This document shows positions 4,366 to 54,149 of a stretch of 60,216 nucleotides of DNA, piece after piece. The notes beneath the pieces are model-generated. The model did no database searches. It saw nothing but the letters and a program-made list of their open reading frames with translations, and had not been told where the DNA came from. Position 1 is the first letter of the stretch; the number at the start of each line of letters is the position of its first letter. The stretch lies in the IMG/VR virus record IMGVR_UViG_3300044783_000109, positions 1 to 60,216 of that record. One strand, written 5' to 3'. Made by a program: the position numbers and the translations under genes. Source of the DNA: a virus.

Positions 4366-4401
4366 GGGCGGCGGCCTCGTCGGTCGTCGCCCGATCTTTT
4401 T
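4366..4401 (+). terminator. Rho-independent terminator-like hairpin
   Basis: 11-bp GC-rich stem (GGGCGGCGGCC/GGTCGTCGCCC, with two G-U pairs), 5-nt loop, then GATC-TTTTT. Confidence 0.55.
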
Positions 4402-4476
4402 CTCACTCGAGGCCCCAAAGAAAAGGGCCGCTCATGCGAACGGGAAGAACGCGAGCGACCCAGAAAGGCAGGACGA

Positions 4477-5913: not shown

Positions 5914-6131
5914 TGGACAAGAAGCACTGCGTAGGTTGCCGCGAAAACTTCTACAACGGCAACAACAGCCTGGGCATCCAGGAATGCTGGATGCTCAAGA
6001 GTGCCAAGCTGATCCTGCGGAAGGCAGTTCACAGGGATCAGCGTGCACCTTGGAATCAGACGGCGACCGAAAAGCCCAGCTGTTACCGGAGTCAGGACTA
6101 CATCTATGTTGGCCCGGAGGTGACGCGATGA
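5910..6131 (+). CDS. Hypothetical protein (73 aa)
   Basis: ATGATG start overlapping the upstream stop; CVGC motif. Confidence 0.55.
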   Translation: MMDKKHCVGCRENFYNGNNSLGIQECWMLKSAKLILRKAVHRDQRAPWNQTATEKPSCYRSQDYIYVGPEVTR

Positions 6132-6235
6132 GGTTCGCCAACGTCCTCCTTGCCATCGCGATTCTTATCGCGGTTCTCATTCTCGTCTTCTGGCGCGCCA
6201 TCGCCGAGGTCCTCGTCGGGGGGCTCGCGCCATGA
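6128..6235 (+). CDS. Micro-ORF, single-TM peptide (35 aa)
   Basis: ATGA overlaps at both ends; sequence MRFANVLLAIAILIAVLILVFW. Below the 60-aa track cut-off as an independent ORF. Confidence 0.45.
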   Translation: MRFANVLLAIAILIAVLILVFWRAIAEVLVGGLAP

Positions 6236-6483
6236 CCTGGGAGGAAATGTGCCAACACCACGCAATTGGCGAAGCCGACGAGCGCGAACGCTGCGAAGAG
6301 CTGCTACAGCGCCACGGGCCGGCGCTGTTTGCCAGGTCCCCACAGATTGTCAGTACCCCACAGAGCCAAGTCGAAATGCAACGCTGCAACAGGTGCTTGC
6401 GTTGGCACGAATCCAAACTGCTATTCGGGGAGGTGCGGATCTGCCGGCAATGTTTCAAGACGGTCAACGGGAGGGCTCCATGA
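6232..6483 (+). CDS. Zinc-ribbon hypothetical protein (83 aa)
   Basis: ORF track; CNRC ... CRQC pairs. Confidence 0.6.
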   Translation: MTWEEMCQHHAIGEADERERCEELLQRHGPALFARSPQIVSTPQSQVEMQRCNRCLRWHESKLLFGEVRICRQCFKTVNGRAP

Positions 6484-6698
6484 AAGCCAGCGAGATCGAG
6501 ATCGGCGGTGTGTACACGGCGAAGGTCTCGGGAAAGCTGGTGCCCGTCCGCGTGCTCGGCGTTTGCCGTCTGAGCTTCGGGGGCGCTCAGGCCTGGCGCT
6601 GCCGGAACGAACTCACCAACCGCGAGATCACCGTCCGCTCGTGCCAGCGCTTTCGCGCGGCCGTCGCGGAAGTCAGAAGGGAGACGCCATCCACATGA
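6480..6698 (+). CDS. Hypothetical protein (72 aa)
   Basis: ATGA-coupled internal start of track ORF 6150..6698. Confidence 0.6.
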   Translation: MKASEIEIGGVYTAKVSGKLVPVRVLGVCRLSFGGAQAWRCRNELTNREITVRSCQRFRAAVAEVRRETPST

Positions 6699-6847
6699 AA
6701 CGCATCAACATCAACCCGCCCCCCTACGCCGGCGGCCAAGGCCGGACGGCCGAAGAGATCGAGGAGATCGGAGCCGCCATGCTCTGGCTCCTCCCTCTGC
6801 TCGTGGTGCTCATCATCTGGTCGCTGTTCAGCGGAGGTCGCTCGTGA
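6695..6847 (+). CDS. Small membrane protein (50 aa)
   Basis: ATGA-coupled; C-terminal helix MLWLLPLLVVLIIWSLF. Confidence 0.5.
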   Translation: MKRININPPPYAGGQGRTAEEIEEIGAAMLWLLPLLVVLIIWSLFSGGRS

Positions 6848-7125
6848 ACGGCGTGCCGGCCGAGGACCAGCTCATCACGTGCCCCGCGTGTGGCAAGCTC
6901 TTTTTCTTCGCGCGCACGCCAGCGGGTGCAGCAATGCCTTTGGACGCCAAGCCGATCAAGCAAGGCTACTCCGTCCCGGATCTCAAAGAGGGCGAGACGG
7001 ATCATACCTGCGCCCCCGCTGGCTTTCCGGTCTTCACTACACATTGGGGAACCTGTTCCGATCCGGACCGCTTCCGCAGGGAGCACAAGAGCTACAAGAA
7101 GGCGCCGGCCGGGGATGGGGGGTAG
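6844..7125 (+). CDS. Zinc-ribbon hypothetical protein (93 aa)
   Basis: GTGA-coupled GTG start; CPACG ... H-x-C ... C pattern. Confidence 0.6.
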   Translation: MNGVPAEDQLITCPACGKLFFFARTPAGAAMPLDAKPIKQGYSVPDLKEGETDHTCAPAGFPVFTTHWGTCSDPDRFRREHKSYKKAPAGDGG

Positions 7126-35534: not shown

Positions 35535-36065
35535 ATGGCCCAGGTGATCATCATCACCACGCCAAAGGGCGCGACCTCCAACGCCTACTGCGACGAGGAC
35601 AAGGCGACGGTCATCCTCCTGCAGCATCGCCTCCACTCCTCGAAGTGGGAGGCGGCGACCATCGACGAGCAGCGGGCGGCGCTCATCTGGGCCACACGAC
35701 TGATCGACAGCTCCTTCGACTTCGACGGCTACCGCGTGACGAAGGAGCAGGCGCTGCGCATGCCCCGCTCGGGTCTGATCGACGACGACGGGTATCAGAT
35801 CGACCCCGACACGATTCCGGTCATTCTCGAGCGCGGGACAGCCGAGTATGCGGCGGCGCTCGTCAAGGAAGACCGAACGGCCGACCCCGACCTCCTCGGC
35901 AAGGGTTTTACCAGCGTGAGCCTGGGCGAGATCAGCGTCGATGTCGGCTCGAGGCAGTCGATGCAGCTGGTTCCGGAGTACGTGGCGGAAATCCTCCGGC
36001 CGATCGCAAGGCTGAGGGCGAGCGTCCGCAAGGGCGGGCGCGTCGTCGAAGTGGTGAGGGCCTGA
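35535..36065 (+). CDS. Head-tail adaptor (gp6-like)
   Basis: NAYCDEDKA...W......E..AALIWATRLIDSSFDFDG pattern plus position after the capsid. Confidence 0.55.
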   Translation: MAQVIIITTPKGATSNAYCDEDKATVILLQHRLHSSKWEAATIDEQRAALIWATRLIDSSFDFDGYRVTKEQALRMPRSGLIDDDGYQIDPDTIPVILERGTAEYAAALVKEDRTADPDLLGKGFTSVSLGEISVDVGSRQSMQLVPEYVAEILRPIARLRASVRKGGRVVEVVRA

Positions 36066-36437: not shown

Positions 36438-36899
36438 GTGAGCTTCTCGACCGACATCTCAAAGTTCGTGAAGAAGACGGGGCTCCGCGCCGACCTGGTC
36501 GTCCGCAAGTTGGGCCTCGACGCCTACGCAGGCGTGCTCAAGCGCTCGCCGGTCGACACCGGGCGATTTCGTGGCAGCTGGCGTGTTGCGGTCGGCGGCG
36601 CCGATGGCTCGGTCAACCCGCCGGTTGCCGATCCCCCAGGTGGAGGAAAGGCCCGAAGCTCAGGACCTCAAAACGGCTCGGAGCCGGACGGACGCGAGCG
36701 GGCGTACGCCGAGGCGAAGCTCCTGGCCGCGAAGTTCGGCAAGGACCTCGTGATCTCCAACAACCTGCCGTATGCGATCCCGCTCGAGCGCGGCCCGCCC
36801 AGCCCGACTTCTAAGCAGGCACCGACGGGCGTGCTGCGCGTCACGCGCGACGACGTGTTCCACAAGTTCGCCGAAACAGTCAAGAGCGTCAGCGGATGA
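36438..36899 (+). CDS. HK97 gp10-family neck/tail-completion protein
   Basis: SPVDTGRFRGSWRV and NNLPYAIPLERG...SKQAP-GV motifs. Confidence 0.7.
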   Translation: MSFSTDISKFVKKTGLRADLVVRKLGLDAYAGVLKRSPVDTGRFRGSWRVAVGGADGSVNPPVADPPGGGKARSSGPQNGSEPDGRERAYAEAKLLAAKFGKDLVISNNLPYAIPLERGPPSPTSKQAPTGVLRVTRDDVFHKFAETVKSVSG

Positions 36900-36905: not shown

Positions 36906-37328
36906 ATGGCAGCGGTAGATTTACGCAAGGTCCGCCAGGTGCTGAGAGAGAAGTTGCTGACCGTCCCTGGCATCCCCGCCACGGCTCTCCACGAGGCGGA
37001 GAACCGGCCGATCGTCCCGCCCGGTCCGGAGACGCCGCTGTGGATCCGCGAGAAGATGGTTCCGATTGCCGAGCCGTTGGTGGCTACCGGCCAGACGCGC
37101 ACGCGCGGGTACATGCAGTGGGACGTCGTGGCACCCGCCGGCCGCGGGACGGAGGAGGTGGAGGATCTCACGACGGCCATCCTCGCGACGTTCAAGCGGC
37201 AGGTGCTCAACTCCCAAGGAATCCAGGTCTACATCTACGACACCGACAGGGCGCAGGGACGGAAGGAGTCGGAGATCTGGTGGTCAAAACCAGTCTTCGT
37301 CTACTGGGCGGTCCACGCCATCACATGA
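36906..37328 (+). CDS. Tail-terminator-like protein (DUF4128-like)
   Basis: ENRPIVPPGPETPLWIRE ... RGYMQWDVVAP-G-G pattern and position. Confidence 0.5.
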   Translation: MAAVDLRKVRQVLREKLLTVPGIPATALHEAENRPIVPPGPETPLWIREKMVPIAEPLVATGQTRTRGYMQWDVVAPAGRGTEEVEDLTTAILATFKRQVLNSQGIQVYIYDTDRAQGRKESEIWWSKPVFVYWAVHAIT

Positions 37329-37343: not shown

Positions 37344-39965
37344 ATGGCTCTCGGTAAGACACGCTTTCACTTCAGCGGCACGGTCGCAGCGACGAACACC
37401 TCAGCGGTGGACGCTGGTTGGAATACGTCGGACCAGGTTGTCCGTCGGCGCCTGCTCTACTGGAAGACGACGGGTACGCCTGGTGCCGGGAGCACCATCA
37501 ACTTAGCGGCGAATCAAAAGGAGATCGATCGACAGTACGAAGGGTTTCAGCTCCCCGCGGGCGTCGTCTTTAACAACTCTCGGCACGTGAAGGGCCAGTT
37601 GATGGTCCGGGAGGTCAACACTAATGATGACGTCACAGAGCTTTGGACTTGCCTGAAGATCGTCTCTGCCGACGGGGCGACAGTCCGGTGCGTGCTGATG
37701 GATTTTGGGCACTACAGCGGAATCAGCACGGAGTTCAGCACTGGTTTTACCAACCGGAAGATTTTCAACGGCCAGACACTCACCCTTGGAACGGAGTACA
37801 CAACGGTCGAGGGCGATCGTTTGCTTCTCGAGGTCGGACCGTTCGCCCTCACGGGCGGGACGACGCCCGCCTTTGCCGGCACCTATGGCTCGAACGGCTC
37901 AAGCGCTCCGGAAGACAACACGTCGACCGGCACGCTGGTTGGGTGGATCGAATTCGATTTTGAGTTCGCTCCGCTTGCGACCGAGCTTGCGCGGCCCGAG
38001 CGGTTCTTTCTTGGGAATGCGGCCGCGCCTGTAACCCCGACGGTGGTTGGCAGCGGGTGGGGCGCGTCGGGAAGCGCGCAGTATTCCAAGCTCGAGGCGG
38101 AGCAACAGACGGGAGACGCGCTCACGGTTGGCCAGCGCCTGGCATTCACTGCCGGTCAGAAGACGCTCGACCGCGGGCTCGTGAGTGACATCCTCGCCGA
38201 CGGAATTGTTTTCACCACTTCCGTGAATGTTTACGGCCAGGTCCAGGGACGTGAGTTCGCAACGGCCGACAACGTCACGCACGTCGTTACGGGCATCCAT
38301 GTCATCTCTGCGGACGGGACTTCCATCCTTGCGACCTTGCTCTCCGTCAACTCGCAAGGTACGGGCGTTGAGTTCCTTGCCTCGGGACTCCGCAACAAGA
38401 CAATCATGAGCGGCGTTCCGCTCACCGCAGGTTACACGACCGTCAACGGAACACCTGCCAGGCTCCTGATTGAAATCGGAGGAGTCGATACTTCGGGGGC
38501 GACGCCTGAAGTGCAGTATCTTTACGGCACCAACGGCATTCCAGTGGGCGAGAACGAGCTGGACGAGGCGTCGGGTGTCGGGTGGATTGAATTCACGATC
38601 GCCGTTCCGGTTGTTACCGGGCAGGTCCGCACGTTCGCGGCGTCGATGTCCTGCACGGCGGACTTGTCGTGCGCTTTGCGCCTCGATCTGGTGCTGGCCG
38701 CCGTCGTGGGCGTGACGGCCGACCTGGTGGCGAAAATCAACGCCGATCGCCCACTTGCGGCATCTCTTCAAGGAACGGCCGACCTCAGCGCGAGCCTCAA
38801 ACCAGATCGCCAGTTCTCCGCCACGCTCGTGGTAACCTCGGATCTCTCCGGTGCGGCGAACGTCGAGCGGCCCCTCGCGGCCAACCTGGTGGCCACTGCT
38901 GACCTTGCGGCCAAGATCACCGGCACCGTGTTCCTGGCAGCGAACCTCGCGGCCACGGCCGATCTGGTGGTTGCCGTAGCGGCCACGCGAAACCTCGCAG
39001 CGTCCTTGCAGGCTGACGCCGCCCTTGTCGCAGCCGTGGCGGTCGATCGGACGGTCTCTGCGGCTCTCCAGGCCACGGCAGACCTCCTGGCCCGGGCGAA
39101 CGTCGATCGCCACCTTGCCGCCAACCTCGTGGCTACGGCCGACCTCCTCGCGAGGATCCAGTCAGAGCTTCGCTTCGCGGCGGCGCTCAGCGCGACAGCC
39201 GACCTCGCAGCTCGCATAGACGCCACCCGCACCTTGGCCGCCGCTCTCCAGGCGGAGGCAACTCTGGCAGCGCTCATCAGCGTCGACCGACCGCTCGCCG
39301 CCGCCCTGCTCGCTACGGTCGACCTTGCTGTCGACCTCGCCACCCTGGGTCAGGTGACGTTTGCCGCGTCCCTGGTGGCAACCGCAGACCTCGCGGCGGC
39401 CCTGCGTGCGGAACGGCCGCTCGCTGCGTCCATGGTGGCGAGCGTCGACCTGCTCGCCCGCCTGGAGGCCTTCCGTGGCCTCGCCGCCTCCCTGCAGGCT
39501 GAGGCCAACATCGACAGCCGGATCAACGTCGATCGCACTCTGGCCGCGCCGGTCGCTGCCTCGGTCGACCTCGCGGCGAGGCTCGCGGCAGAGCGGCCGT
39601 TCGCCGCGTCGATGGTCTGCACGGCCGACCTCCTGGCTTCCATCCGGGCGGATCGCAACTTTGCCGCCGCGCTCCAGGCGGATGCAAACCTTGCTGCCCG
39701 TGTGGACGTCGATCGAGGCTTTGCCTGCGGGCTCTCGGGCGACGCGAACATTTCCGTCGGCCTCATCCGCAGCGTGCCACTGGCGGCCGCGCTCGTGGCC
39801 GACGCCAACCTCGTGGTCTCGCTCGTCGTGAGCGACGAGCCGCTGCCCTTCCAGGAGGGAAACACATCTGTGTGGACTGTTCCGGCGCTCCATTCCACGT
39901 GGGAGGTGCCAGCGCTCGATTCTACGTGGGAGGTCCCAAGCGTGCCGGCCACTTGGACGGCGTGA
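37344..39965 (+). CDS. 873-aa virion-module protein: duplicated ~210-aa N-terminal domain + 20 tandem 20-residue repeats + short TW-x-VP repeats
   Basis: ORF track. Both N-terminal domains end in GWIEF. Repeat consensus is roughly LAA-L-ATADL-A-I--DR-. Antisense ORFs are shadows. Confidence 0.8.
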   Translation: MALGKTRFHFSGTVAATNTSAVDAGWNTSDQVVRRRLLYWKTTGTPGAGSTINLAANQKEIDRQYEGFQLPAGVVFNNSRHVKGQLMVREVNTNDDVTELWTCLKIVSADGATVRCVLMDFGHYSGISTEFSTGFTNRKIFNGQTLTLGTEYTTVEGDRLLLEVGPFALTGGTTPAFAGTYGSNGSSAPEDNTSTGTLVGWIEFDFEFAPLATELARPERFFLGNAAAPVTPTVVGSGWGASGSAQYSKLEAEQQTGDALTVGQRLAFTAGQKTLDRGLVSDILADGIVFTTSVNVYGQVQGREFATADNVTHVVTGIHVISADGTSILATLLSVNSQGTGVEFLASGLRNKTIMSGVPLTAGYTTVNGTPARLLIEIGGVDTSGATPEVQYLYGTNGIPVGENELDEASGVGWIEFTIAVPVVTGQVRTFAASMSCTADLSCALRLDLVLAAVVGVTADLVAKINADRPLAASLQGTADLSASLKPDRQFSATLVVTSDLSGAANVERPLAANLVATADLAAKITGTVFLAANLAATADLVVAVAATRNLAASLQADAALVAAVAVDRTVSAALQATADLLARANVDRHLAANLVATADLLARIQSELRFAAALSATADLAARIDATRTLAAALQAEATLAALISVDRPLAAALLATVDLAVDLATLGQVTFAASLVATADLAAALRAERPLAASMVASVDLLARLEAFRGLAASLQAEANIDSRINVDRTLAAPVAASVDLAARLAAERPFAASMVCTADLLASIRADRNFAAALQADANLAARVDVDRGFACGLSGDANISVGLIRSVPLAAALVADANLVVSLVVSDEPLPFQEGNTSVWTVPALHSTWEVPALDSTWEVPSVPATWTA
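38634..39842 (+). repeat. Coding tandem-repeat array, ~60-bp period, 20 degenerate units
   Basis: Protein residues 431-833 parse into 18 units of 20 aa plus one of 22 and one of 21. Confidence 0.85.
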
Positions 39966-39989
39966 ACCGAAGGAAACCAGGAGGCACGA

Positions 39990-40406
39990 ATGCCATTCTC
40001 GACCGCGATTGATAACTCGATCCTCGATCACTTCTTCACCAAGGCCACGTGGGCGGCGCGGACGGCCAACGCGACGTGGATCGGGCTGAGCTCGACGACC
40101 CCCACGAAGGCCGGAGGCAACGTCACGGAGCCTTCAGGCGGAGCGTACGCACGCGTGCAGCTGACCGCGGCCGAGGTGGACACCGCGGCCTCGAGCGCCA
40201 CGACGTCGAATGCCGAGCAGGCGTTCGCGCAGGCGTCGGCCGACTGGGTTGCCGGCGCCGATCTGACGCACCTCGTCCTTATGGACGCGTCGAGCGCCGG
40301 GACATTCCTCGCCTTCAAGGCGCTGACCACGGCGAAGCCTGTTCTGAGCGGCGACACGGCCAAGATTCCAGCGGGTGATCTGGACGCAGCGATCGGCGGA
40401 ACGTAA
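39990..40406 (+). CDS. Hypothetical virion-module protein (138 aa)
   Basis: ORF track. N-terminus MPFSTAIDNSILDHFF...; no function recognised. Confidence 0.65.
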   Translation: MPFSTAIDNSILDHFFTKATWAARTANATWIGLSSTTPTKAGGNVTEPSGGAYARVQLTAAEVDTAASSATTSNAEQAFAQASADWVAGADLTHLVLMDASSAGTFLAFKALTTAKPVLSGDTAKIPAGDLDAAIGGT

Positions 40407-40464: not shown

Positions 40465-40845
40465 ATGGATCTCGTCGAGAGAAAAAAGCAGTACGAGGCG
40501 CAGGTGCGGGCGGTGTACGAGAGGAAGGATCAGCTGCTGAAGGCCTCGCGTGGCAAGAAGGCGCTGCGCCCGACGATCGACCGGCTGGCCGAAGCGTGGG
40601 AGGAGATGGTCGCCGTCGCCTACGACCAGGACCGGTTCTCGGTCTTGGCTCAATACTGCCCGCCGGACGAAAAAGGCAAGGCGAAGAAGGCGTTTTACGA
40701 CGACTACTGCGCGAAGGCCGGACCGCGCATTGCGGCGCTGACCGAACAGGCGAAGCAGCTGGAGACGGAGCTGGCGAAGCTCTCGGCAGAGTCCAAGGCG
40801 GCGGAGCTGGCGACGGCCGCAGCCAAGGCCTCGGCCGCCCCCTGA
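40465..40845 (+). CDS. Coiled-coil hypothetical protein (126 aa)
   Basis: ORF track; AAGGAAGGAAAG upstream. Confidence 0.6.
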   Translation: MDLVERKKQYEAQVRAVYERKDQLLKASRGKKALRPTIDRLAEAWEEMVAVAYDQDRFSVLAQYCPPDEKGKAKKAFYDDYCAKAGPRIAALTEQAKQLETELAKLSAESKAAELATAAAKASAAP

Positions 40846-40859: not shown

Positions 40860-41153
40860 ATGGCCCACCGCGCACCTGAAGAGCTGGTCAAAACCCCTTA
40901 CGAGGAGGTGCTCTGCGACTTCGACCTGACGAAGCGCCTGAAGGAGGGTGAGACCATCGGCCTGTTCTCCGAGCAGAACATCACGGTCGTTCCGAGCGAT
41001 GTCACGGTCGTAAACGTGGCGGTGTTGACCCCACGTGTGCAGGTGAAGCTGGCCGGCGGCGCGGCCGGTGGAGAGTACGAGGTCAACGGCAAGCTCGTGA
41101 CCAGCTTGCAGAAGCTCGAGGTCCAAGGCGCGCTGAAGGTCAGAAACCCTTAG
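40860..41153 (+). CDS. Hypothetical protein (97 aa), beta-rich
   Basis: ORF track. Confidence 0.6.
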   Translation: MAHRAPEELVKTPYEEVLCDFDLTKRLKEGETIGLFSEQNITVVPSDVTVVNVAVLTPRVQVKLAGGAAGGEYEVNGKLVTSLQKLEVQGALKVRNP

Positions 41154-41179: not shown

Positions 41180-42343
41180 ATGGCCTTTGAAACAATCGTC
41201 GGAGTCGTCGAAGCCTACGTCGCCGAGGTCACGCGCGGAACGACGCCAACCACTCCAACGCTGAAGACCTTCCGCCGCACGAGCAGCGACATCGACCTTG
41301 AGAAGGACATCGTGGAGTCGCAGGAGATCCGCGCCACCCGCGGGGAGTCGGAGTGCCGGCACTCGTTCAACCGCGTGGCCGGCTCCCTTGGTTTCGAGTG
41401 GTCGCTCCAGGCGTACGACGACTTCATAGAGTACGCGCTGGGCGGCACCTGGGCGACCGTCGCGCACGCGGCGGTGAACATCCAGGCCGTGGCGTCGACG
41501 AAGAAGTTCATCCGTGCCTCGGGCAGCTGGATCGTCGATGGCTACCGCCCGGGGATGCTCGTCAACGGCGCGGGCTTCACCGCCGGCGCGAACAACGTGG
41601 CGCTCGCGCGGATCAAAACGCTGACCGCCACCGACATGGAGGTGGATGCGACGCTCGTCGACGAGGCCTCGACCTCCGGTCGGACCATCAGCGTGCCTGG
41701 CAAGTGCATCGAGGTGGCGAAGACGCTGAAGACGGTGACGCTCGAGCGCCAGTTCCAGACGCTCGCGAAGTACCAGGCGCGCCGCGGCGTCATGGTCGCC
41801 AAGTGGAACCAGACGATCAACCTCCAAACGATGGTCGGCGGCACGTTCGAGCTGCTTGGTATGTCGGCCGATCCCATCGGGTCCGCCAGCGTCTCCGGAT
41901 CTGCTCCGACCGACGCTCCGGCAAGCTCTCCGTTCGCAGCATTCGACGGCGCGCTGTTCGAGGCCGGCTCGGCCATCGGCATCATGTCGTCCCTCAACTG
42001 GACGCAGGACAACCAGGCGAGCCTCAGTGGCGTCATCGGCAGCAAGTTCTCACCCGGCATCTTCGAGAGCATTGCCAAGTTCACCGGCTCGCTCACCGCG
42101 CTCTTCGAGAGCGGCACGCTGCTGAACGAGTTCATCAACGAGGCGGCGCCAGCCCTGTGGCTGAAGCTGAATGACCCAAACGCCACGGACTACGTGAACA
42201 TCATGTTCCACCGCCTGAAGTACACGGGCGGCAAGGTCAACGTTCCTCAGCAGGGGCCGGTGGACGTCGCCCTGCCCTTCAAGTTTTTGGAGAACCCGAC
42301 GTACAAGACGGCCATCACCATTCAACGTTCGAACGCGGTGTAG
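41180..42343 (+). CDS. Major tail (tube) protein with inserted domain
   Basis: 387 aa, directly upstream of the chaperone/tape-measure set. Carries a ~52-aa module also present in the host-specificity protein. Confidence 0.6.
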   Translation: MAFETIVGVVEAYVAEVTRGTTPTTPTLKTFRRTSSDIDLEKDIVESQEIRATRGESECRHSFNRVAGSLGFEWSLQAYDDFIEYALGGTWATVAHAAVNIQAVASTKKFIRASGSWIVDGYRPGMLVNGAGFTAGANNVALARIKTLTATDMEVDATLVDEASTSGRTISVPGKCIEVAKTLKTVTLERQFQTLAKYQARRGVMVAKWNQTINLQTMVGGTFELLGMSADPIGSASVSGSAPTDAPASSPFAAFDGALFEAGSAIGIMSSLNWTQDNQASLSGVIGSKFSPGIFESIAKFTGSLTALFESGTLLNEFINEAAPALWLKLNDPNATDYVNIMFHRLKYTGGKVNVPQQGPVDVALPFKFLENPTYKTAITIQRSNAV

Positions 42344-45405: not shown

Positions 45406-46386
45406 ATGGCAAGTTTTCACGAAGTACAGTTCCCGACAAACATAAGCTACGGATCGAGAGGTGGACCTCGATTTTCGACGGAGATCATCAAGAAGCGCAG
45501 CGGATCGGAGGAACGCGTCGCTCGCTGGGGATACCCCATGCACGTCTACAACGTGCGCTATGGGCTTCGCTCTTACGAGGACCTGCAGGCGGTCAAGGAC
45601 TTCTTCATCAAGCGCCTCGGGCCTGCCCATGGGTTTCGTTACAGGGATCCTACGGACTTCACGACCATGGCGAACCCAAGCCTACCAACGGACTTCCGCA
45701 ACGGATCAACTCCTGTCTTCAGCGACGTCGTGATTGCCAACGGGGATGGTTCGACGAAAACATTCCAGCTGCTAAAAAAGTACTCCGACGCCGTCGTCAC
45801 GCGCACGCGGAATATCTACAAGCCGGTCACCGGAACGGTCAAGAGCGGAGTCAACGGGGCGGAGAAGGCCATCACGACCGACTGGACTGTGGATGTGACG
45901 ACTGGGCTACTCACGTATGGGACAGCCCCTCCAAATGGCCAGAGTGTGACCGCCGGTTTCGAGTTTGATGTCCCGGTCCGTTTCGACGACTCCCTGGACG
46001 AGGGCATGATCCTCAACCTCCAGCAATTTGCAGCAGGCGATTTTCCTGATCTTCCACTTGTCGAGGAGTTCGCTCCGAGCGTGACGTCCGACGAGTACTT
46101 CTATGGAGGGGCAGCCGACCTTGCGTTCTCGGTAGACATAACAATCTCTTCGCTCACTGGGAGGTTTGTGCGGCTGAATCCTGCCGGTCCATCCTTGTCG
46201 GTCAAGCTTCCGGATGCCATTGATCTTGAGGATGGAGGTACGTGGTTCTTCCTCGCCAATATCTCAAGCAACGCCTTGGCGATCAAGAACAGCGGGGGCA
46301 CGACCGTCTTCACGCTGAATGCGAATACCGGAGCGGAGCTTCTCCTCGGAACGTTTGGCGGGGTGAAGACCTGGTATGGATTCTGA
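45406..46386 (+). CDS. Distal tail protein, DUF2460 / RcGTA g12-like, with extra C-terminal domain
   Basis: MASFHEVQFPTNISYGSRGGPRFSTEII...RWGYPMHVYNVRYGLRS matches the DUF2460 N-terminus. Confidence 0.8.
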   Translation: MASFHEVQFPTNISYGSRGGPRFSTEIIKKRSGSEERVARWGYPMHVYNVRYGLRSYEDLQAVKDFFIKRLGPAHGFRYRDPTDFTTMANPSLPTDFRNGSTPVFSDVVIANGDGSTKTFQLLKKYSDAVVTRTRNIYKPVTGTVKSGVNGAEKAITTDWTVDVTTGLLTYGTAPPNGQSVTAGFEFDVPVRFDDSLDEGMILNLQQFAAGDFPDLPLVEEFAPSVTSDEYFYGGAADLAFSVDITISSLTGRFVRLNPAGPSLSVKLPDAIDLEDGGTWFFLANISSNALAIKNSGGTTVFTLNANTGAELLLGTFGGVKTWYGF

Positions 46387-46627
46387 GCAGCCCCTCCTAC
46401 TCAAGAAGGCAGAGGTTCACCCGCGGCTGGAGCCTGGAACCTGGGGCTACGTGAGGCGCGACCGCGCCAGCGAGGCGGTCATGAGCTGCCCAGTGTGCGG
46501 CAAATGCTCTCACATCCGTGACCATCGGGTCTCAGGCGATGGATCGGTCACGCCGTCGATTCGCTGCCCGCACGCTGGCTGCGCGTTCGATGCGCACGTC
46601 CGCCTGGACGACTGGGGGCCCGGATGA
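46376..46627 (+). CDS. Small zinc-ribbon protein (83 aa)
   Basis: CPVCG ... H ... PSIRCPH-GC-F-AH ... W pattern. Confidence 0.55.
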   Translation: MDSEQPLLLKKAEVHPRLEPGTWGYVRRDRASEAVMSCPVCGKCSHIRDHRVSGDGSVTPSIRCPHAGCAFDAHVRLDDWGPG

Positions 46628-46956
46628 TCACGCGCGCAAAGTTTATGGGGGGCGCGCAAGACCTGACACCTGGGGCTGACTTTTTTCTCGTGCCTGAGGC
46701 TGGGAAATTCGCTCGCGTGACTCAAAGTGTCGCGTCCGTGAAGGCGAAGCTGCCGCCGGCGACAGGCTACCCACAGAAGGGCGGATCCATCGCGTTCGTC
46801 TTCAACAATCACGCAACCAATACGCTCACACTGGCGGACAACGGCGGGAACGTGATCGCGAGTCTGACGCCTGGGCAAATGGCAATCGTGCTGCTCTACG
46901 GGAACACGACCGCCAACGGCTTGTGGTCGGTCATCATCAGGAACAAAAAGACGTGA
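46624..46956 (+). CDS. Hypothetical protein (110 aa), homologous to the C-terminal domain of the DUF2460 protein
   Basis: FARVTQSVASVKAKLP...GGSIAFVFNNHATNTLTLADNGGNVI aligns with FVRLNPAGPSLSVKLP...GGTWFFLANISSNALAIKNSGGTTV. Confidence 0.6.
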   Translation: MITRAKFMGGAQDLTPGADFFLVPEAGKFARVTQSVASVKAKLPPATGYPQKGGSIAFVFNNHATNTLTLADNGGNVIASLTPGQMAIVLLYGNTTANGLWSVIIRNKKT

Positions 46957-49793
46957 TCATCGCCGAGTTCAACTCATTCGATCACGTGTCGGCCGGCACG
47001 TTCGCAGATCAATTAGGCTTCCAGCAGTACGGCCTGGAATTCCCAACCACGAGCGGCTGGACGGGCACGGTCACGATGGTCACCGGCTGGGACGGAACTG
47101 GCCAAGCGATCAGCGCGCCTGCCGGGGTGCTGTACACGATCCCAAGCTCCGGTGGGATAACCCTCAACACGTTCGATGTCGCAATCGTGCGGGTCCGCTT
47201 CAAGCCCCTCTCCCTGGCTTCGGAGCGGACCATTCTTTCCATTCGAAACGGTGGGGTGGACGAGATCCACCTCATGCTCACGACTGGTGGATTCCTCAAG
47301 GTTGACCCTGGCGACGAATCGACCGCTGGGCCATGGACCTCTGCGAAGCACACGGCTCTTGTTGTCGGCACTTGGTACAACATCGAGTTTGGGGTTTATG
47401 TCCACGATACGGCCGGGCAGGTGCGCGTCCGCCTCAACGGCATCTTTGTTTCTGACCTGAAGCTCGACAACGTCGATACGCACGGAGCCGCTCCTTCTCC
47501 GGCTACGACCAAGTTCAACCGCATTCGCATCGACAATGCAGATGGGGTCTACGACGACTTCTATCTGAAGCTCGGAAACGGCAGCCTCCTCGAGGAGGAG
47601 TTCCTCACGACCAAGAGCGGAAATCCGAAAGTTCTGACGCTCTTCCCGATCGGGCCCGGAACTTACGAGGAGTGGTCTGGAACTGGCGGGGCAGGCACGC
47701 ACTTCCAAGACATCGACGACGTGACGGCCGACGGCGACACGACAGTTTTGACAACTGGAAGTAAAGGCGCCAGGGAGTCGTGGAGGTTCCAGGGACTGGT
47801 TGCTCCGGGCTCGATCACGACCACACCGACGACGCCTCAGCAGCCTGGGCAAACAGCGCCAGGAAATTTCTCTTCGGATCTTTGGGAGACGACGTTCCAG
47901 GCGCTGCCAGTCCACCAGCAGGGGCAGTACCACATGGACATCGACGACGACTTCAGCCTGCTCTCCCCTGGCAGGCTTCAGGCTGACCTGACGGTTACTG
48001 GACCGGGCGGGCGCAAGCGCACAGAAATCGGTCTGTGGGATCCGGCTGAGTCCTCGGAGATTCTCCTCAAGGATCCAGTCGGCTCTACGCGATGGTACTC
48101 ATGGGGTTTCGAGCTGCCTTCCAATTGGGTGCAGTCGGTCCACAAATCGGTGATCACGCAGTGGTACGAAAGTCAGGATCCGCCAGTTCTCAATCCTCCG
48201 ATGTCACTTGAGGTTGTCAGGACAGAGATCAGGGTTGTCCAAAGCCTTCTGACCGGCCGGCGCATTTTGGCCAGAATTCCGGATGTAATTGGCAAGACCC
48301 ATCGCTTCGAGGTGAAGGCCAAGTGGTCGAACACCACCTCTGGCTACTTCTTGATGTGGCACAACGGCGTGCAGATCATCAATCAGCAGAACTTTGCGAA
48401 CGTGAATCACCCATCGCCCGGCGTGTTCTTCAAGATGGGTGTGTATCTGCCGGGCGTGCCGAACGGTAATTACCCAGTCGGCTTCAACCGGAAGATCATC
48501 CTCAACTACTACTTCCGCGGGTCGAAGCAAGCCGACAGCGCCGACCAGGTGGCGGACGTTGCTGTTCAAGCTCCTCCGGTCACAGCGTCCCTGCCAACAC
48601 AGGTTCCGATTGTCCTCTCGGGGATTCTCGCTGTCGGCACCGTCTACTACGCACGGAACAACGTTAGTGCGGAGAAGATCCGCCACTTCTTCCGCATCAA
48701 CGCAGTGGACTATTACCACTCGGCAGCCCCGGTGGAAGTCCAGATAAATTACAAGTACGAGAATAAGCTGTGGATTCTTTCTCCATCCACAGGCCAACAA
48801 TGGTCTGCGCAGGAGCTGAACACAGCAGAGGCTGGGCTCTCGCGCTATACCGATGGCAATAGCGATCACGTGAGGATTTCTCAAGGCGTGGTTCTGGCCA
48901 TGGTGATCGACGCGAAGGATCCAGAAGTCGACAGCCCGGAGGATGCGGATCTGCCTGGGGCGATATCGCTTCTCACGCAGAAGACGCACCGCCTGGCCAG
49001 CCTTTGGAAGATCCAACGCGAGGACGGCAAGGTCTTCAGGTTTGCCGATCACAACGCACAGATCATTTTCGACGGAGCCACGTACAAGCCGGCTGGCGGA
49101 TTCGACGCTTCGGCGCGCCGAAAAGAAAGTGGGTTGCGTGTCGCCAACCTGGAGATCAGGGGCGCGCTCACGTCGGATGACATCACCGTCAATGACTTAC
49201 GGGCTGGGCGGTACAGAAATGCGAAGATCACTGAGTACCTCGTTGATTGGAAGTATCCGTGGGCAGGGTCGATGGAGACTTCGGTCTACTGGATTGCCGA
49301 TGTGAAGTTCAGCGGATCGGGCTTCATCGTGCAGCTCGCAGGAACGCCGCAAAGGCTGCGCGTTGGGGTTGGGAGCTACTACTCGCGATCTTGTCGCTAC
49401 GACCTTGGAAACGCACGGTGCAAGGTCAATCTTTTTGCACTGACGCTGTTTAACTGCGAAGTCGTTACTGTTGTCGACCAAAGGAACTTTACCGCGACGC
49501 ACCCTGCGCTTGCGGGTCTCCCTGACGACTGGTTCAATTTTGGGCGGCTGGTCTTCACCTCTGGTGACAACATAAATCTCGTGTCGGACGTCAAGGGATT
49601 CTTGACGGCTACGAGTCAGTTCGAAATCCAGCTCGAAGCTCACTTCACAATTGCTCCTGGCGTCTTCTTCAACGTCGAGCCTGGATGCAACAAGCTGTTC
49701 ACAGGCGACTGCACGACAAAATACAACAACAGAATAAATTTCGGCGGCTTTCCCTTCCTGCCAGGGAGTGACCGAGTGCTGAAAACACCATGA
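46953..49793 (+). CDS. Tail hub protein: LamG-like + polysaccharide-lyase-like domains fused to a DUF2163/BR0599 (RcGTA g13-like) C-terminal region
   Basis: GTGA-coupled GTG (track start 46923). LamG-like: VGTWYNIEFGVYVH...VRVRLNG. Lyase-like: RKRTE...ITQWYES...PP...HRFEV...MWHNG...FFKMGVY. C-terminal: LASLWKIQREDGKVFRF-DHN...GGFPFLPG. Confidence 0.75.
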   Translation: MIIAEFNSFDHVSAGTFADQLGFQQYGLEFPTTSGWTGTVTMVTGWDGTGQAISAPAGVLYTIPSSGGITLNTFDVAIVRVRFKPLSLASERTILSIRNGGVDEIHLMLTTGGFLKVDPGDESTAGPWTSAKHTALVVGTWYNIEFGVYVHDTAGQVRVRLNGIFVSDLKLDNVDTHGAAPSPATTKFNRIRIDNADGVYDDFYLKLGNGSLLEEEFLTTKSGNPKVLTLFPIGPGTYEEWSGTGGAGTHFQDIDDVTADGDTTVLTTGSKGARESWRFQGLVAPGSITTTPTTPQQPGQTAPGNFSSDLWETTFQALPVHQQGQYHMDIDDDFSLLSPGRLQADLTVTGPGGRKRTEIGLWDPAESSEILLKDPVGSTRWYSWGFELPSNWVQSVHKSVITQWYESQDPPVLNPPMSLEVVRTEIRVVQSLLTGRRILARIPDVIGKTHRFEVKAKWSNTTSGYFLMWHNGVQIINQQNFANVNHPSPGVFFKMGVYLPGVPNGNYPVGFNRKIILNYYFRGSKQADSADQVADVAVQAPPVTASLPTQVPIVLSGILAVGTVYYARNNVSAEKIRHFFRINAVDYYHSAAPVEVQINYKYENKLWILSPSTGQQWSAQELNTAEAGLSRYTDGNSDHVRISQGVVLAMVIDAKDPEVDSPEDADLPGAISLLTQKTHRLASLWKIQREDGKVFRFADHNAQIIFDGATYKPAGGFDASARRKESGLRVANLEIRGALTSDDITVNDLRAGRYRNAKITEYLVDWKYPWAGSMETSVYWIADVKFSGSGFIVQLAGTPQRLRVGVGSYYSRSCRYDLGNARCKVNLFALTLFNCEVVTVVDQRNFTATHPALAGLPDDWFNFGRLVFTSGDNINLVSDVKGFLTATSQFEIQLEAHFTIAPGVFFNVEPGCNKLFTGDCTTKYNNRINFGGFPFLPGSDRVLKTP

Positions 49794-50242
49794 GCGACGT
49801 AGCTTCAGTGGATATCGACGTTAGGGCAAGGATCGTCCAGGCGGCTCGAAGTCTCATCGGAGTCAAGTACGTCCATCAGGGGCGATCGCGCTTCGGTATC
49901 GACTGCGCCGGCGTCGTGGTCCACGCTGGGGCGGCTACCGGAATCCCAATCGAAGACCACACTGTCTACCCTGGAGGGCTCAACCTCAATCTCATGCTCG
50001 AGTACCTGAGCAAGAACGCAATCAAAACGATGGGCAAGTGCGTTCCGGCCGTGTCGATCCCTCGTGGCAGCATAGTCCTGTTCCTCCATCCACGCATTCA
50101 ACTCTGCCACGTTGGGATTAAAACTGAAGGCGCGTCCATGGTCCACTCCTGGAAATCGACGGGGAAGGTGACCGAAACGCCAATCGATTCACGTTGGCAT
50201 CGGGTCCTCGAGAGCGTGTGGGATTTCAAGGGGGTCTCGTAG
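49790..50242 (+). CDS. NlpC/P60-family peptidase (RcGTA g14-like)
   Basis: GIDCAGVVVHA (catalytic Cys) and LCHVGI (His). Confidence 0.8.
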   Translation: MSDVASVDIDVRARIVQAARSLIGVKYVHQGRSRFGIDCAGVVVHAGAATGIPIEDHTVYPGGLNLNLMLEYLSKNAIKTMGKCVPAVSIPRGSIVLFLHPRIQLCHVGIKTEGASMVHSWKSTGKVTETPIDSRWHRVLESVWDFKGVS

Positions 50243-50243
50243 C

Positions 50244-53200
50244 ATGGCCACCGTTTTTCTCGGAGCCGTAGGGACTGCGGTTGGCGGACCTTTTGGGGGA
50301 GCTATCGGTTCTATCCTTGGCTCCTATCTGGACAAGCGCTTCATCCTTCCGGCCCTGTTTCCAAAGGACGACCCCAGGGGCCCGCGCCTTGGGGAGTTCC
50401 GTCTTCAGACGGCCGACGAAGGCTCGCCAATGAACATGTGCTTCGGTGAGGCCGTGAGGGTCTCTGGCACAGTAATTTGGCTTTCTGATCTCATCCCAGA
50501 GAAGCGAACAGATTCGGCCGGTGGGTTCCTTGGATGCGGAGGAGAGAAGACGCGCAAGACGAAGTACTCGGCGCATATCGCTGTCGGGGTGTGCGATCGG
50601 CGCATCGAGGCGGTGGAAAAAATCTGGGCCGATGGAAAGTTGATTTACACCGGACGCTTTGGTGAGCCAGAGGTCTCGTTCGAATCGAGTCTGATCTACG
50701 GGACGATCGACATCAGGCGATCCTTCATCGACGGGACGAAGAAGCGAACCGGCACCGTTTCCGGGAATTACTCCGTGGGCGCAAAGAGCTTCGTGGCGGC
50801 CATCGACACGACCAAGATGACACCACGGCAGGGCGAGCTATTCAAGGTCGCGCCCGATGGATTTGAGTACGTGATCCAGAACGTCCCTGTCGTCTCTGGC
50901 GGGCTCGCGACGATCGAGTTTGAGCCTGGGGCATTGCAGACGTTCGACAATGCCGAGGTTATCACGTGGATGGCGGCCATCCAGAAAGAGCGCCGCCTCT
51001 ACATCGTCTCGACCGATCCAGAAGTAGACCTCGCCGGACAGTTCGACGTGACCACCGGAGTTCGGATCAAGGTCGGAGAAACGGTGAACGTAAGCGGGTC
51101 GGTCTACCCAAGCAATAACGGGGATTTCCGAGTCCTTGGAGTTGGCGGGTTCCTCTCGGTTGACAATACGTTTCTCGTCGGCAATGCGATCAGCGTTCTC
51201 AATCCATTCGCCGTGCCGTTCAATGTTGGCACCTCGGTCATAGCGCTGGTCCAGGAAGCCCCGACGGCGCTCTCTGGCATCGCTGACGACATTCGAACCT
51301 ACGTTGGCGACGAGACGCAAGTCCCAGACTCTCTTATCGAGAGTGTGGAATTCGAGGTGGCAAGCACTGGTGATCGAGGGATCATTTTCAACGGGCTTGT
51401 GAGCGTGAATGGAACGACAGACACGTATACACGGGCTTCCGGTAGCTGGTTTGCTGATGGCTTCACAGTCGGGATGCTTGTGAGTGGCAGCGAATTCAAC
51501 ACCGGCGCAAACAACGTCACCAACGCGCTCATCTTGGCGTTGACAGAGACGGCCATGACCGTCGATGCCAACCTCACCACAGAAAGTTCGAACAAAGCAA
51601 CGATCAAGGTCACTGGCTCGATCGACAACACGCCTTCCTATCGTGGCCATGCTTACGTGGTCTTCGAGAAGCTACTACTCTCGAACTTCGGGAATAGAAT
51701 CCCTAATTTCGAGTTCCTCATCCGCGAGCGCACTGGTCGAACGGTTGGTCAAACCATAGGGCTGATACTCGCGGGTGCCGACTTCACGAGTTCAGAATTT
51801 GACGTGGCGTCCGTCCAGGACGTGCTGGGTGGGTATGCCTTCAAGGGGGTTCAGGAGGCGGCCCAGGTCTTGCAGCCAATGCTCTTGGCGTACAACCTTG
51901 GAGCGCAAGAGCGAAGCGGCGTCCTCACATTCCTGAAGGTTACCGATTCTCCCCTGGTCACCATCGCAGACGGGGACCTTGGGGCGCGCGCCGATGGGGA
52001 CGCGGCGGAGCAGGATCCGGTCGCCATCACTCAGGTGCACGAGATCAACCTGCCGCGTGAGCTGCACGTGAAGTACCAGGATGCCGAACGGAACTACCAG
52101 GTCGGTGACCAGGTCGCGCGAAGCCTCAACTCCCGGTTCAATGCGGTGCAGACGCTCGATCTCCAGCTCTCCCTGACGGCGTCTGACGCGCGGAAGATTG
52201 CCGAGAGAATCCTGCACGTCGCCCTGGCTGGCCGGTATGAGGTCGAAGTCGATTTGCCGCCGTCGAAGATAGGGCTGAGGGAGCAGGATGCCCTGAGCTT
52301 CAACGCCTACGCTAAGGCCTGGAAGGCATTCTGCTTGAAGCTCGACCGCGGTGAGAACTACCTGCTAAAGGCACAGGCGGTTTACGAGGAGCCGGCGGCC
52401 TTCATTCAGAGCGGCGACTTCGACAAGAACTTCGGGATCCCTACTGGCGGCTCAGTCCCGGACGTCCCCGGCCCAGGAATCATGGACCTCCAATTCATTG
52501 ACTGGGCTCCTCTGGGGCCCGGCCGCACAAATATCGGAGACGGAGAGTTCGGGTTCTACATGGCGGCCTCGCTCTATGACCCCAACCAAGAGTTTACGTC
52601 GGAGCTGCTGATCGAGTCTTCGGACGGTGGAGTGACGTACCGCGAGCGCGGGTTCTTGGGCTTCGAATCGGTAATGGGCAGGGCAGCCGGAGCGCTCGGG
52701 ATCGGCCTGCCAGACACGTGGGATCGAGGTAACAAGGTCACGGTGTTCCTGCAGGAGGGGAGCCTCACGAGCGTCTCGGAGGCTGAGGTCTACGCCGGCA
52801 GGAACCTCTGTATCATCGGTGACGAGATTCTCGCATTCAGCACGGCTACGTTGGTTGGGACCAACACCTACGAGCTGAGCAACCTCCTTCGAGGGCGCAG
52901 GAATACAGAGAGCAAGATCGACCAGCACGAGATCGCTGATCGGTTCATACTCCTGGACGAGACGAACATAACGTTCATCACCGTACCGCAGTTTGCCTAT
53001 CTCCAGACCTGGCGCTACAAGCTGGTTTCGCCCGGGGTGTTGCCGGCTTCTGAGGAGCCTGGTGGTCTGGCTGGCGCCACGGTAAACGACCCAGCGGAGG
53101 ATCACACGGTGACCGCCGGGGCGCTCACGTGCTTCTCGCCCACATGGGTACGTGGTGCGCGAAACGTGTCGAACGACCTGACGATCACCTGGGCGTATCG

Positions 53201-53453
53201 GTCGAGGGCGCTCACCCGCGCTTTCGGTCCGCAGGCGACTCCGCTTGTGGAGTCGACAGAAAAATACGAGGTGGACATCCTGGACACCAACGGTGTTGTG
53301 AAGCGGACGATTTCGAGCACAAGTCCGACTGCGTCCTACACAGCGGCACAACAGGGAGACGACGGGTTTACGCCAGGCAACTCGATCACGGTGGAAGTCT
53401 TTCAAATTGGTGGAGTAGTTCGGAGAGGAAGAGGAGAGAGGAAGACGATATAG
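50244..53453 (+). CDS. Host-specificity / central tail fibre protein (RcGTA g15 / lambda J-like)
   Basis: 1069 aa. Gly-rich N-terminus, then RL.EFRLQTADEGSPMNMCFGE.RVSGTVIWL...KYSAHIAVGVC...IEAVEKIWADGKLIY, typical of this family. Confidence 0.8.
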   Translation: MATVFLGAVGTAVGGPFGGAIGSILGSYLDKRFILPALFPKDDPRGPRLGEFRLQTADEGSPMNMCFGEAVRVSGTVIWLSDLIPEKRTDSAGGFLGCGGEKTRKTKYSAHIAVGVCDRRIEAVEKIWADGKLIYTGRFGEPEVSFESSLIYGTIDIRRSFIDGTKKRTGTVSGNYSVGAKSFVAAIDTTKMTPRQGELFKVAPDGFEYVIQNVPVVSGGLATIEFEPGALQTFDNAEVITWMAAIQKERRLYIVSTDPEVDLAGQFDVTTGVRIKVGETVNVSGSVYPSNNGDFRVLGVGGFLSVDNTFLVGNAISVLNPFAVPFNVGTSVIALVQEAPTALSGIADDIRTYVGDETQVPDSLIESVEFEVASTGDRGIIFNGLVSVNGTTDTYTRASGSWFADGFTVGMLVSGSEFNTGANNVTNALILALTETAMTVDANLTTESSNKATIKVTGSIDNTPSYRGHAYVVFEKLLLSNFGNRIPNFEFLIRERTGRTVGQTIGLILAGADFTSSEFDVASVQDVLGGYAFKGVQEAAQVLQPMLLAYNLGAQERSGVLTFLKVTDSPLVTIADGDLGARADGDAAEQDPVAITQVHEINLPRELHVKYQDAERNYQVGDQVARSLNSRFNAVQTLDLQLSLTASDARKIAERILHVALAGRYEVEVDLPPSKIGLREQDALSFNAYAKAWKAFCLKLDRGENYLLKAQAVYEEPAAFIQSGDFDKNFGIPTGGSVPDVPGPGIMDLQFIDWAPLGPGRTNIGDGEFGFYMAASLYDPNQEFTSELLIESSDGGVTYRERGFLGFESVMGRAAGALGIGLPDTWDRGNKVTVFLQEGSLTSVSEAEVYAGRNLCIIGDEILAFSTATLVGTNTYELSNLLRGRRNTESKIDQHEIADRFILLDETNITFITVPQFAYLQTWRYKLVSPGVLPASEEPGGLAGATVNDPAEDHTVTAGALTCFSPTWVRGARNVSNDLTITWAYRSRALTRAFGPQATPLVESTEKYEVDILDTNGVVKRTISSTSPTASYTAAQQGDDGFTPGNSITVEVFQIGGVVRRGRGERKTI

Positions 53454-53456
53454 CCA

Positions 53457-54149
53457 ATGCCTACTAACCAAGTTGGGCTGGATTACCTCGTAGAGAATCA
53501 GAATGCAGCGGAGATCCTCGTCAACGAAGGCCTTGACAAGATCGATGCCCTTATTCGTCTGTCGATCAAAGATCGAGACCTTGCGACTCCGCCCGGCTCG
53601 CCAGCGCACGGTGACCGCTACATCGTCGCCACTTCTCCAACTGGCCTCTGGGCTGGCCAGGCGGGGAAGCTGGCCGTGTGGTTTAACACCGCCTGGAAGT
53701 TCTTCACCGTGAAGGAGGGGTGGGAACTCTGGATTGATGACGAGAACAAGCTGCTCGTCTTCGACGGCTCGGCCTATCTTCAGATCGCTCGGAAGCAGTT
53801 GATACGGTTCCGTCAAATCAGGACGGTTGACAACCCCGGGGCCGCCGAAGATCGGTCCATGTTCTTTACCGACACGGCTATCACGGTTACAAAGTTGGCG
53901 GCGGTCCTCAAGGGCTCGGCCTCGCCGTCAGTCACGTGGACCATCCGCTACGACGCCGACCGCAACGCGACGGGTACGGAAGTGGTGACCGGCGGTACGA
54001 CGACGACATCGACGACGACGGGGAGCATCGTATCGAGCTTCAGCGACCCTACGATTCCGGCCAACTCTTTCGTCTGGCTCGAGACGACGGCCAAGAGCGG
54101 GACGGTGGATGAAATGAATGTCACCGTTACCTTCACGGAGGACGACTAA
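53457..54149 (+). CDS. DUF2793-like tail fibre-associated protein
   Basis: PPGSPAHGDRYIV...GLWAGQAGKLAVWFNTAWKFF..KEGW.LW......LLVFDGS. Confidence 0.7.
   Translation: MPTNQVGLDYLVENQNAAEILVNEGLDKIDALIRLSIKDRDLATPPGSPAHGDRYIVATSPTGLWAGQAGKLAVWFNTAWKFFTVKEGWELWIDDENKLLVFDGSAYLQIARKQLIRFRQIRTVDNPGAAEDRSMFFTDTAITVTKLAAVLKGSASPSVTWTIRYDADRNATGTEVVTGGTTTTSTTTGSIVSSFSDPTIPANSFVWLETTAKSGTVDEMNVTVTFTEDD

Follow-up and report, generated by a model that had tools for sequence, protein, structure and literature searches.

The IMG/VR virus record IMGVR_UViG_3300044783_000109 (60,216 nucleotides, all of which make up the window analysed here) encodes an 873-amino-acid (aa) protein (37344..39965, + strand, ATG start) that consists of two copies of a domain ending in GWIEF, twenty 20-aa beta repeats, and a tail of tryptophan (Trp) mini-repeats. 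We conclude that this protein is most likely the single-chain core, or long component, of a neck (collar) fibre of the Gp77/Gp80 system, since its neighbours are homologues of Gp80 and Gp77 and thereby place it in the described collar-whisker/fibre-I system. As to its role within that fibre, we favour, at about even odds, the reading that the repeat array is a rope that threads Gp80-like dimers, with lectin-like domains at its far end. Dimers of the 138-aa Gp80-like protein encoded next to it would be strung along this rope as beads, and each Gp80 subunit would have its open beta-sandwich completed by strands of the rope, so that the number of repeat units would set the length of the fibre. 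The C-terminal Trp mini-repeats would tie the rope to a ring of the Gp77-like immunoglobulin (Ig)-like adaptor round the neck, and the two GWIEF domains at the free end, where relatives carry ConA-like lectin domains, would act as binding modules. Established here are the repeats, their beta character, the protein family, and the conserved gene surroundings with their 20/40-aa period; we infer the threading of Gp80, and with it the stoichiometry, the polarity and the collar anchor.

The Gp80/Gp77 cassette and described fibres

The 138-aa protein (39990..40406, + strand) belongs to the Gp80 family, the subunit of GP4 fibre I and of whiskers (PF23140, E=1e-28), which has at least 5744 members. 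It matches PDB chain 8jou_a by sequence (E=1.3e-3), and its AlphaFold2 model matches the folds of 8jou_a, Sf14 9c39_K and Bas63 9mt4_K/L with a probability of 1.0. The 97-aa protein (40860..41153, + strand) is of the Gp77 family of Ig-like fibre-tail adaptors, or collar proteins (PF23148, E=7.6e-10); its residues 11-86 align to residues 7-81 of PDB chain 8jou_D (E=0.007), and it has no N-terminal rope extension. We also asked whether the array and the Gp80-like protein might be complementary in charge, and dropped the idea because both are acidic when residues are counted from the sequences.

In the whiskers of Bas63 and Sf14 and in fibre I of GP4, dimers are threaded on a rope, which completes their incomplete sandwiches (PMC12609058; PMC11821841), the whiskers of Sf14 being threaded identically (PMC11821841). 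GP4 has a larger rope, a protein in its own right, which is interlocked with the Ig-like collar and bears five fibre-I dimers (PMC12609058); fifteen gp77 adaptors around the head-to-tail adaptor hold five fibres I (PMC11445570). PDB entry 8JOU contains 10 gp80 and 3 gp77 chains per fibre I. The collar protein gp4 of Bas63 has 166 aa, with an Ig domain that includes Cys52, Cys69 and Cys90, and the extent of this domain leaves a rope of ~45 aa for four whisker monomers, or ~10-11 aa each. That the known Gp80 assemblies require a rope we count in favour of the rope model. Because the Gp77-like protein of the window lacks a Bas63-type N-terminal rope, a separate rope protein is needed, and no periodic candidate other than the 873-aa protein lies nearby in the window.

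The closest parallel is fibre I of the Ralstonia podophage GP4 (PDB 8JOU; Zheng et al., J Mol Biol 2023, as cited in PMC12609058 and PMC11445570), as the window encodes homologues of both gp80 and gp77 beside the repeat protein. GP4 gp79, a 325-aa protein annotated as virion-associated, is encoded directly after gp80, has ~10-11 units with a best period of 20, and is what we infer to be the GP4 rope gene; it resembles the window protein in adjoining gp80. GP4 has its rope separate from the adaptor, as proposed for the window. That its ~10-11 units stand against 10 gp80 chains per fibre I is a further point that we count for the rope model. The differences are that GP4 is a podophage with fibres on its head, whereas the window is siphovirus-type with an RcGTA/phiJL001-like tail, and that gp79 has 325 aa and about half as many units, whereas the window protein has 873 aa and adds two N-terminal domains and Trp mini-repeats; sequence similarity between the two is undetectable, and the array showed none to a rope of known sequence. 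With the felixounaviruses Bas63 (9MT4) and Sf14 (9C39) the window shares the whisker fold, seen in its Gp80-like protein, and the Ig-like collar ring at the neck. The Bas63 rope, moreover, has its N-terminus distal and its C-terminal end at the collar, in agreement with the polarity that we propose. However, the Bas63 rope consists of ~45 aa added to the N-terminus of the collar protein itself and takes up just two dimers, whereas the proposed rope of the window, at 873 aa, would be a protein apart, with 20 units and with globular domains at its end; and by sequence the Bas63 whisker falls outside the Gp80 family, to which the 138-aa protein of the window belongs.

Periodic genes beside Gp80

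We assembled 80 viral contigs encoding Gp80 relatives, reduced them to 64 non-redundant loci, and scored every open reading frame (ORF) for periodicity, counting an ORF as adjacent if it lay <= 400 bp from Gp80 on the same strand and as distant if it lay >2 kb away. Thirty of the 117 adjacent ORFs scored were strongly periodic, distributed over 29 of the 64 loci, and 29 of the thirty had a period of 20 or 40 aa, the sole exception having a period of 22. The 403 distant ORFs scored yielded 10 strongly periodic ones with assorted periods, of which 3 had a period of 20 or 40 (Fisher's exact p=2e-17 for adjacent vs distant period-20/40 counts). Many of the loci with no periodic ORF are short contigs cut near Gp80. 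This tie between a 20/40-aa period and Gp80 adjacency is counted for the rope model.

The composition of the adjacent arrays is varied (Ala-rich, Gly/Ser-rich, or Thr/Val/Lys-rich) and their period constant, and most of them end in Trp mini-repeats. One third alternate A-type and B-type 20-aa units to give the period of 40, as would be expected of a directional rope that runs through two-fold dimers. The trio of repeat protein, Gp80 and Gp77 recurs on independent contigs, with different N-terminal domains on the repeat protein (L003 with P0008, L005 with P0006, L007 and L008, where L numbers denote loci and P numbers relatives of the 873-aa protein), and in L002 the repeat protein P0004 directly adjoins the Gp80 gene. 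A collar gene was located by the small Gp77 profile in 7 census loci only, which sets the extent of any test of exclusion between rope genes and extended collars.

Repeat-only members of the family have 190-300 aa. The 194-aa protein of L033 is hardly more than repeats plus Trp mini-repeats, and in the cultured podophage phiM5 of Sinorhizobium (L089, MF074189, 5001-5980) the Gp80-like gp17 is directly followed by gp18, a 198-aa, weakly 10/20-periodic, Ala/Ser/Thr-rich protein with three terminal Trp mini-repeats. Proteins with so little beyond repeats and mini-repeats fit a scaffold better than an autonomous receptor-binding fibre. According to its database record, gp17 is in the phiM5 virion proteome, and with the gp17/gp18 pair the family has a member that is open to experiment.

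Sequence of the repeat array

The 873-aa protein begins with a beta-rich domain (37344..37988, residues ~1-215) and its paralogue (37989..38633, residues ~216-430), each ending in GWIEF, followed by the array (38634..39839, residues 431-832) and a C-terminal tail with 9-aa Trp mini-repeats (39840..39962, residues 833-873), all on the + strand. A sequence-only reading of the window had proposed twenty tandem 20-residue repeats that parse cleanly. The repeats are real, with a self-identity of 0.414 at period 20, compared to 0.135 +/- 0.016 (maximum 0.199) in 2000 shuffles, and there are twenty units of 20 aa; the parse is interrupted once, by a 2-aa insertion (VT, residues 671-672) that separates 12 units starting at residue 431 from 8 units starting at 673. 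Self-identity is also high at offsets of 40, 60 and 80, with a weaker 10-aa sub-period (0.247). The same reading had described two ~210-aa domains ending in GWIEF, which proved to be true paralogues (35% identity, alignment A5; phmmer domain matches cover both copies), and C-terminal TWEVP mini-repeats, which are present as 3-4 copies (VWTVPALHS / TWEVPALDS / TWEVPSVPA / TWTA) and are reported by Tandem Repeats Finder as 27 bp x 2.0 copies at 39885-39938.

The unit consensus in the window, [LF]-A-A-x-L-x-A-T-A-D-L-x-A-x-[LI]-x-[AV]-D-R-x, is unchanged in its pattern when units of the window and its homologues are pooled (132 units). Identity between units of the 873-aa protein averages 0.41 in protein (maximum 0.65) and 0.51 in DNA (maximum 0.70), and Tandem Repeats Finder reports no 60-bp DNA array across the repeat region; the units are old and diverged. 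The sequence-only reading had further suggested that the repeats offer a substrate for length variation. Repeat number does differ among relatives (~5 to >30 units per array); as a substrate for present-day recombination the array is weak, because no pair of units exceeds 70% DNA identity.

Irregular G-x-V-T-F units without the D-R turn occur at residues 525-530 and 667-672 (~38916-38933 and 39342-39359). They are 142 aa apart, that is 7 units plus 2 aa. P0006 has the identical spacing, and P0015, P0018, P0029 and L007 contain units of a similar kind; their recurrence hints at a higher-order period or at hinge points. The 873-aa ORF is also in frame with the Gp80-like ORF, from which it is separated by a TGA and 8 codons (39963-39989), so that stop-codon read-through would fuse the two proteins, and we saw no sign of its occurrence.

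Fold of the array

That the array is beta structure with two strands per unit is well supported; in our reading these strands have one hydrophobic face. Across residues 431-832 the Fourier power of hydrophobicity is 885 at period 2.00 and 23 in the alpha range (3.3-4.0), the signal being produced by the inward positions 1, 3, 5 ... 17 of the unit; homologous arrays also peak in the beta range (P0006, 770; P0008, 290). An AlphaFold2 model of residues 421-873, built on an alignment of 16 rows that include 15 homologous arrays, has 40 strands of 7-8 residues, two per unit, joined by turns of 2-3 residues (T-A-D and D-R-x in each unit). Its mean predicted local distance difference test score (pLDDT) is 69.9 and its predicted template modelling score (pTM) is 0.64; along the chain, pLDDT is 80-90 at the centre, 50-60 at both ends, and 36-50 in the C-terminal mini-repeats. 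The sequence-only reading had set a periodic fold against low-confidence disorder, and it is the periodic beta architecture that the model returns.

Two folds offered by that reading fare poorly here. One is the quadrilateral beta-helix of pentapeptide-repeat proteins, in which every 20 aa would contribute four faces, each an A(D/N)LXX pentad. The array shares with these proteins a period that is a multiple of 5 (20 = 4 x 5), a periodic beta character, and one pentad per unit, T-A-D-L-x, that follows the A-D-L-x-x rule; yet the four-faced register does not hold. The pentads were said to fit A(D/N)LXX in about half of cases, and we accept that the fit is incomplete; as just one of the four pentads in each unit follows the rule, the array is not that of a pentapeptide-repeat protein. 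Half of the five-residue centres would fall on variable or polar positions (6+16, or 10+20), the odd five-residue register would destroy the period-2.00 hydrophobic signal, the model has two 7-8-residue strands per unit rather than four short faces, and no Pfam pentapeptide family matches at E <= 0.1. This reading is largely refuted and we hold it to be very improbable. The other is an Ala/Leu-rich alpha-helical or coiled-coil fibre, for which speak the high content of both residues and the weak helices (pLDDT 35-56) that AlphaFold2 drew where the array part had no alignment. With homologues supplied the prediction is all-beta and much more confident, Asp-Arg-Pro/x is conserved every 20 aa, and the excess of period-2.00 power over the alpha range rules such a fibre out, so that we leave it hardly any chance.

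A stronger alternative, with a substantial chance of being right though well short of even, is that the array folds by itself into a two-sheet beta-solenoid shaft resembling curli CsgA, with each unit a strand-arc-strand coil and the 20 coils making a rod of ~10 nm that stands on the collar and bears the two N-terminal domains; the C-terminal mini-repeats, not the array, would then be a short rope for Gp77 and/or a few Gp80 subunits. Most of what favours this shaft also weighs against the rope. Modelled in isolation with its 15 homologues, the array becomes self-contained, regularly stacked beta structure with the central confidence and pTM given above, and the mini-repeats score low, as though needing a partner. 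The closest PDB folds to the model are all beta-solenoids (CsgA 8c50 first, then GlmU, EtpA, EspP, tailspike and AlgE6), and the similar predicted rods in BFVD all belong to proteins of uncultured phages that are uncharacterised. Between half-units, a large inward residue is matched by a small one (A7/L11, L5/A13, A3/L15, L1/V17), as would suit a two-sheet solenoid core; covariation of side-chain volume between half-unit positions gave no signal in the 132 units, which we ascribe to these positions being too conserved. The mini-repeats (9 aa, 3-6 copies) resemble the Bas63 rope (4 segments of ~11 aa), and elsewhere arrays of period 18-24 stand behind GWIEF domains in proteins with no detectable Gp80 neighbour. 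Three more points may be set against the rope. A single-chain chimera of the last six units and the Gp80-like protein, modelled with AlphaFold2 and with no homologues supplied for its rope part, showed no strand insertion (pLDDT 80-95 in the Gp80 part; 35-56 and weak helices in the rope part). GP4 gp78 and gp79 have no PDB entry by sequence, and the GP4 rope gene is unnamed in the literature searched. The Bas63 footprint (~10-11 aa per monomer) disagrees with the GP4 count (~20).

Against the self-folding shaft, the Foldseek matches to the PDB are non-significant (best E=2.5, template modelling score ~0.2), and the likeness to CsgA, the best of these neighbours, goes no further than ~20-residue strand-turn-strand repeats: there is no sequence relation, and CsgA is an extracellular amyloid subunit with Ser/Gln/Asn/Gly ladders, whereas the window protein lies in a phage virion module. 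The alignment behind the model has 16 rows only, and AlphaFold2 runs on monomers tend to stack strands that are really paired with partners. A lone rod would expose hydrophobic surface, as outward unit positions 2, 12 and 14 are largely Ala, Val or Leu in the pooled units. The shaft also leaves unexplained the strict 20/40-aa period at Gp80 adjacency, the A/B alternation, and the repeat-only proteins of 190-300 aa. For the rope, analogy with GP4 and the 40-aa super-period would imply a footprint of ~20 aa per Gp80 monomer, and analogy with Bas63 one of ~10-11 aa; given these two footprints, the window protein would carry either 20 or 10 Gp80 dimers.

Homologues and modular architecture

When 1.84 billion representatives were searched exhaustively with HMMER (E <= 1e-3), 733 relatives of the 873-aa protein emerged. 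A word-indexed search with the full-length protein returned the self match only, its candidate list having probably been filled up by Ala-rich words. Searches of Pfam, PHROGs, NCBIfam and PDB sequences with the 873-aa protein gave no match, nor did tblastn and megablast of the protein and a 20-kb region against 50,697 phage records, and neither the array nor the GWIEF domain nor GP4 gp79 belongs to a curated family. MAFFT alignments that mixed N-terminal-domain, rope and Gp80 rows (A2, A3 and A6) were grossly misaligned and were discarded.

Two modules, independent of each other, account for the relatives: the GWIEF domain and the ATADL...DR array. The array module is found behind unrelated N-terminal domains in many metagenomic phage proteins (P0006, P0013-15, P0018, P0024, P0027, P0029, P0035, P0095, P0108 and P0110), among them the 851-aa P0006, which is 52% identical to the 873-aa protein over the array. 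The N-terminal domain is Laminin_G_3 (PF13385, ConA-like) above the cut-off in 7 of the 10 repeat-module homologues scanned with Pfam, with a weaker match in P0035. PF13385 has no match in the N-terminal domains of the 873-aa protein itself, so that the lectin analogy is one of position only. Nearly all homologues end in 3-6 mini-repeats of 8-10 aa, often W-x-[VI]-P-x-x-G-[RK]-T, and these persist despite differing sequence (P0006, P0013, P0014, P0015 and P0147).

Locus L007 encodes a 1179-aa relative (3454-6993, + strand), and the Gp80 gene beside it shares 79% identity with that of the window. The relative has three copies of another N-terminal domain, two blocks of units (~15 + 17) with a non-repeat insert between them, and TWRPEGGR mini-repeats, six in number, at the C-terminus, and so illustrates the wide variation in the number of both units and mini-repeats.

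The GWIEF domain occurs in hundreds of proteins, many of them standalone proteins of 220-250 aa and some with 2-3 copies; no Pfam match was found in 38 members, and no PDB profile, PHROG or NCBIfam relative. Some standalone homologues begin with apparent signal peptides (P0003, P0032, P0062, P0101, P0103 and P0088), and the domain, judged from such sequences, may not be phage-specific and may be used by secreted cellular proteins too. Other beta-repeat arrays, of period 18-24, follow GWIEF domains in L090 (P0042), L092 (P0087), L093 (P0072) and L094 (P0100). In L090 and L092 the GWIEF proteins lie in head/neck modules, each with a 140-158-aa ORF directly upstream whose stop overlaps the start; these ORFs have no detectable family, and such gene pairs may be divergent whisker-rope pairs. 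Glycosyltransferase genes lie near the GWIEF proteins of L090 and L094. A search for rope-Gp77 fusions gave a marginal match in P0072 alone, unconfirmed by Pfam.

Significance

Bead-on-rope fibres are already published, and the system is therefore not categorically new. To our knowledge, chain-like rope-threaded fibres first appeared in cryo-electron microscopy structures of 2023-2025 and are known from three phages only. The sequence-only reading did not recognise the architecture from described phage fibres, a statement overtaken by the context that the Gp80 and Gp77 neighbours supply. We nonetheless regard the window protein as more than another member, because its domain architecture, its size and its type of host virus differ, and because the sequence signature of the rope is undescribed in the literature searched.

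Somewhat short of an even chance, in our estimate, is the broader proposition of a very large uncatalogued family of phage ropes, in siphophages, podophages and myophages alike, whose sequence works as a ruler: every unit, of 20 aa or in A/B form of 40 aa, would dock one Gp80-type subunit, and unit number would fix the fibre length. Swappable lectin-like domains at the free N-terminus would make of the whisker at the neck a long and programmable fibre for binding hosts. If the rope reading is right, a rope could be recognised in sequence by two-strand units of 20 aa, by Trp mini-repeats as its anchor and by tip domains that are swappable, and thousands of "hypothetical" virion genes beside genes of the Gp80 family could be annotated. 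The system would be extended to long-tailed phages, a simple length-ruler principle would be suggested, and the modular tips (GWIEF, ConA-like lectin) would become candidate host-range determinants and engineering targets. Should the array instead be a free-standing solenoid, it would be a new type of phage-fibre shaft, of a curli-like cross-beta kind, and of narrower, structural interest.

Gene neighbourhood and other features of the window

By its genes the window is of siphovirus type, and its distal tail resembles those of RcGTA and phiJL001. Its gene order is large terminase, portal, head morphogenesis protein, scaffold, major capsid protein, head-tail adaptor Ad1 (35535-36065), Neck1/HK97 gp10-like protein (36438-36899) and tail terminator (36906-37328), the last three assigned by family matches on the + strand; then come the 873-aa, 138-aa, 126-aa and 97-aa genes, followed by the tail tube, chaperone and tape measure genes. 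The tail tube gene (Phage_tube_2; 41180..42343, + strand) is directly downstream of the fibre cassette, which thus lies between the tail terminator and the siphovirus-type tail tube genes. The placement in a virion module proposed from the sequence alone therefore holds, and is narrowed to the neck/tail part of that module.

Between the Gp80-like and Gp77-like genes, a predicted helical protein of 126 aa (40465..40845, + strand) has no significant match in Pfam, PHROGs or NCBIfam. It is coiled-coil-like, L005 has a 101-aa ORF at the equivalent position, and it could be a fibre assembly factor.

The distal tail region (45406-54149, + strand) encodes DUF2460, a hub protein of 956 aa that combines a polysaccharide-lyase domain with Gp84_N and BR0599, a protein with Phage-tail_3 and Rcc01698_C, and DUF2793. 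This RcGTA/phiJL001-like set of tail families, which we take to be typical of Alphaproteobacteria phages, would suggest such a host. Far upstream, a 749-aa protein (9375-11624, + strand) for which no family was matched combines a long coiled coil with the Walker A motif GVNGVGKS and resembles an SbcC/SMC-type ATPase; its 14-aa "period" is a single tandem duplication, ARAASRELEKEAKG x2, of an ordinary kind.

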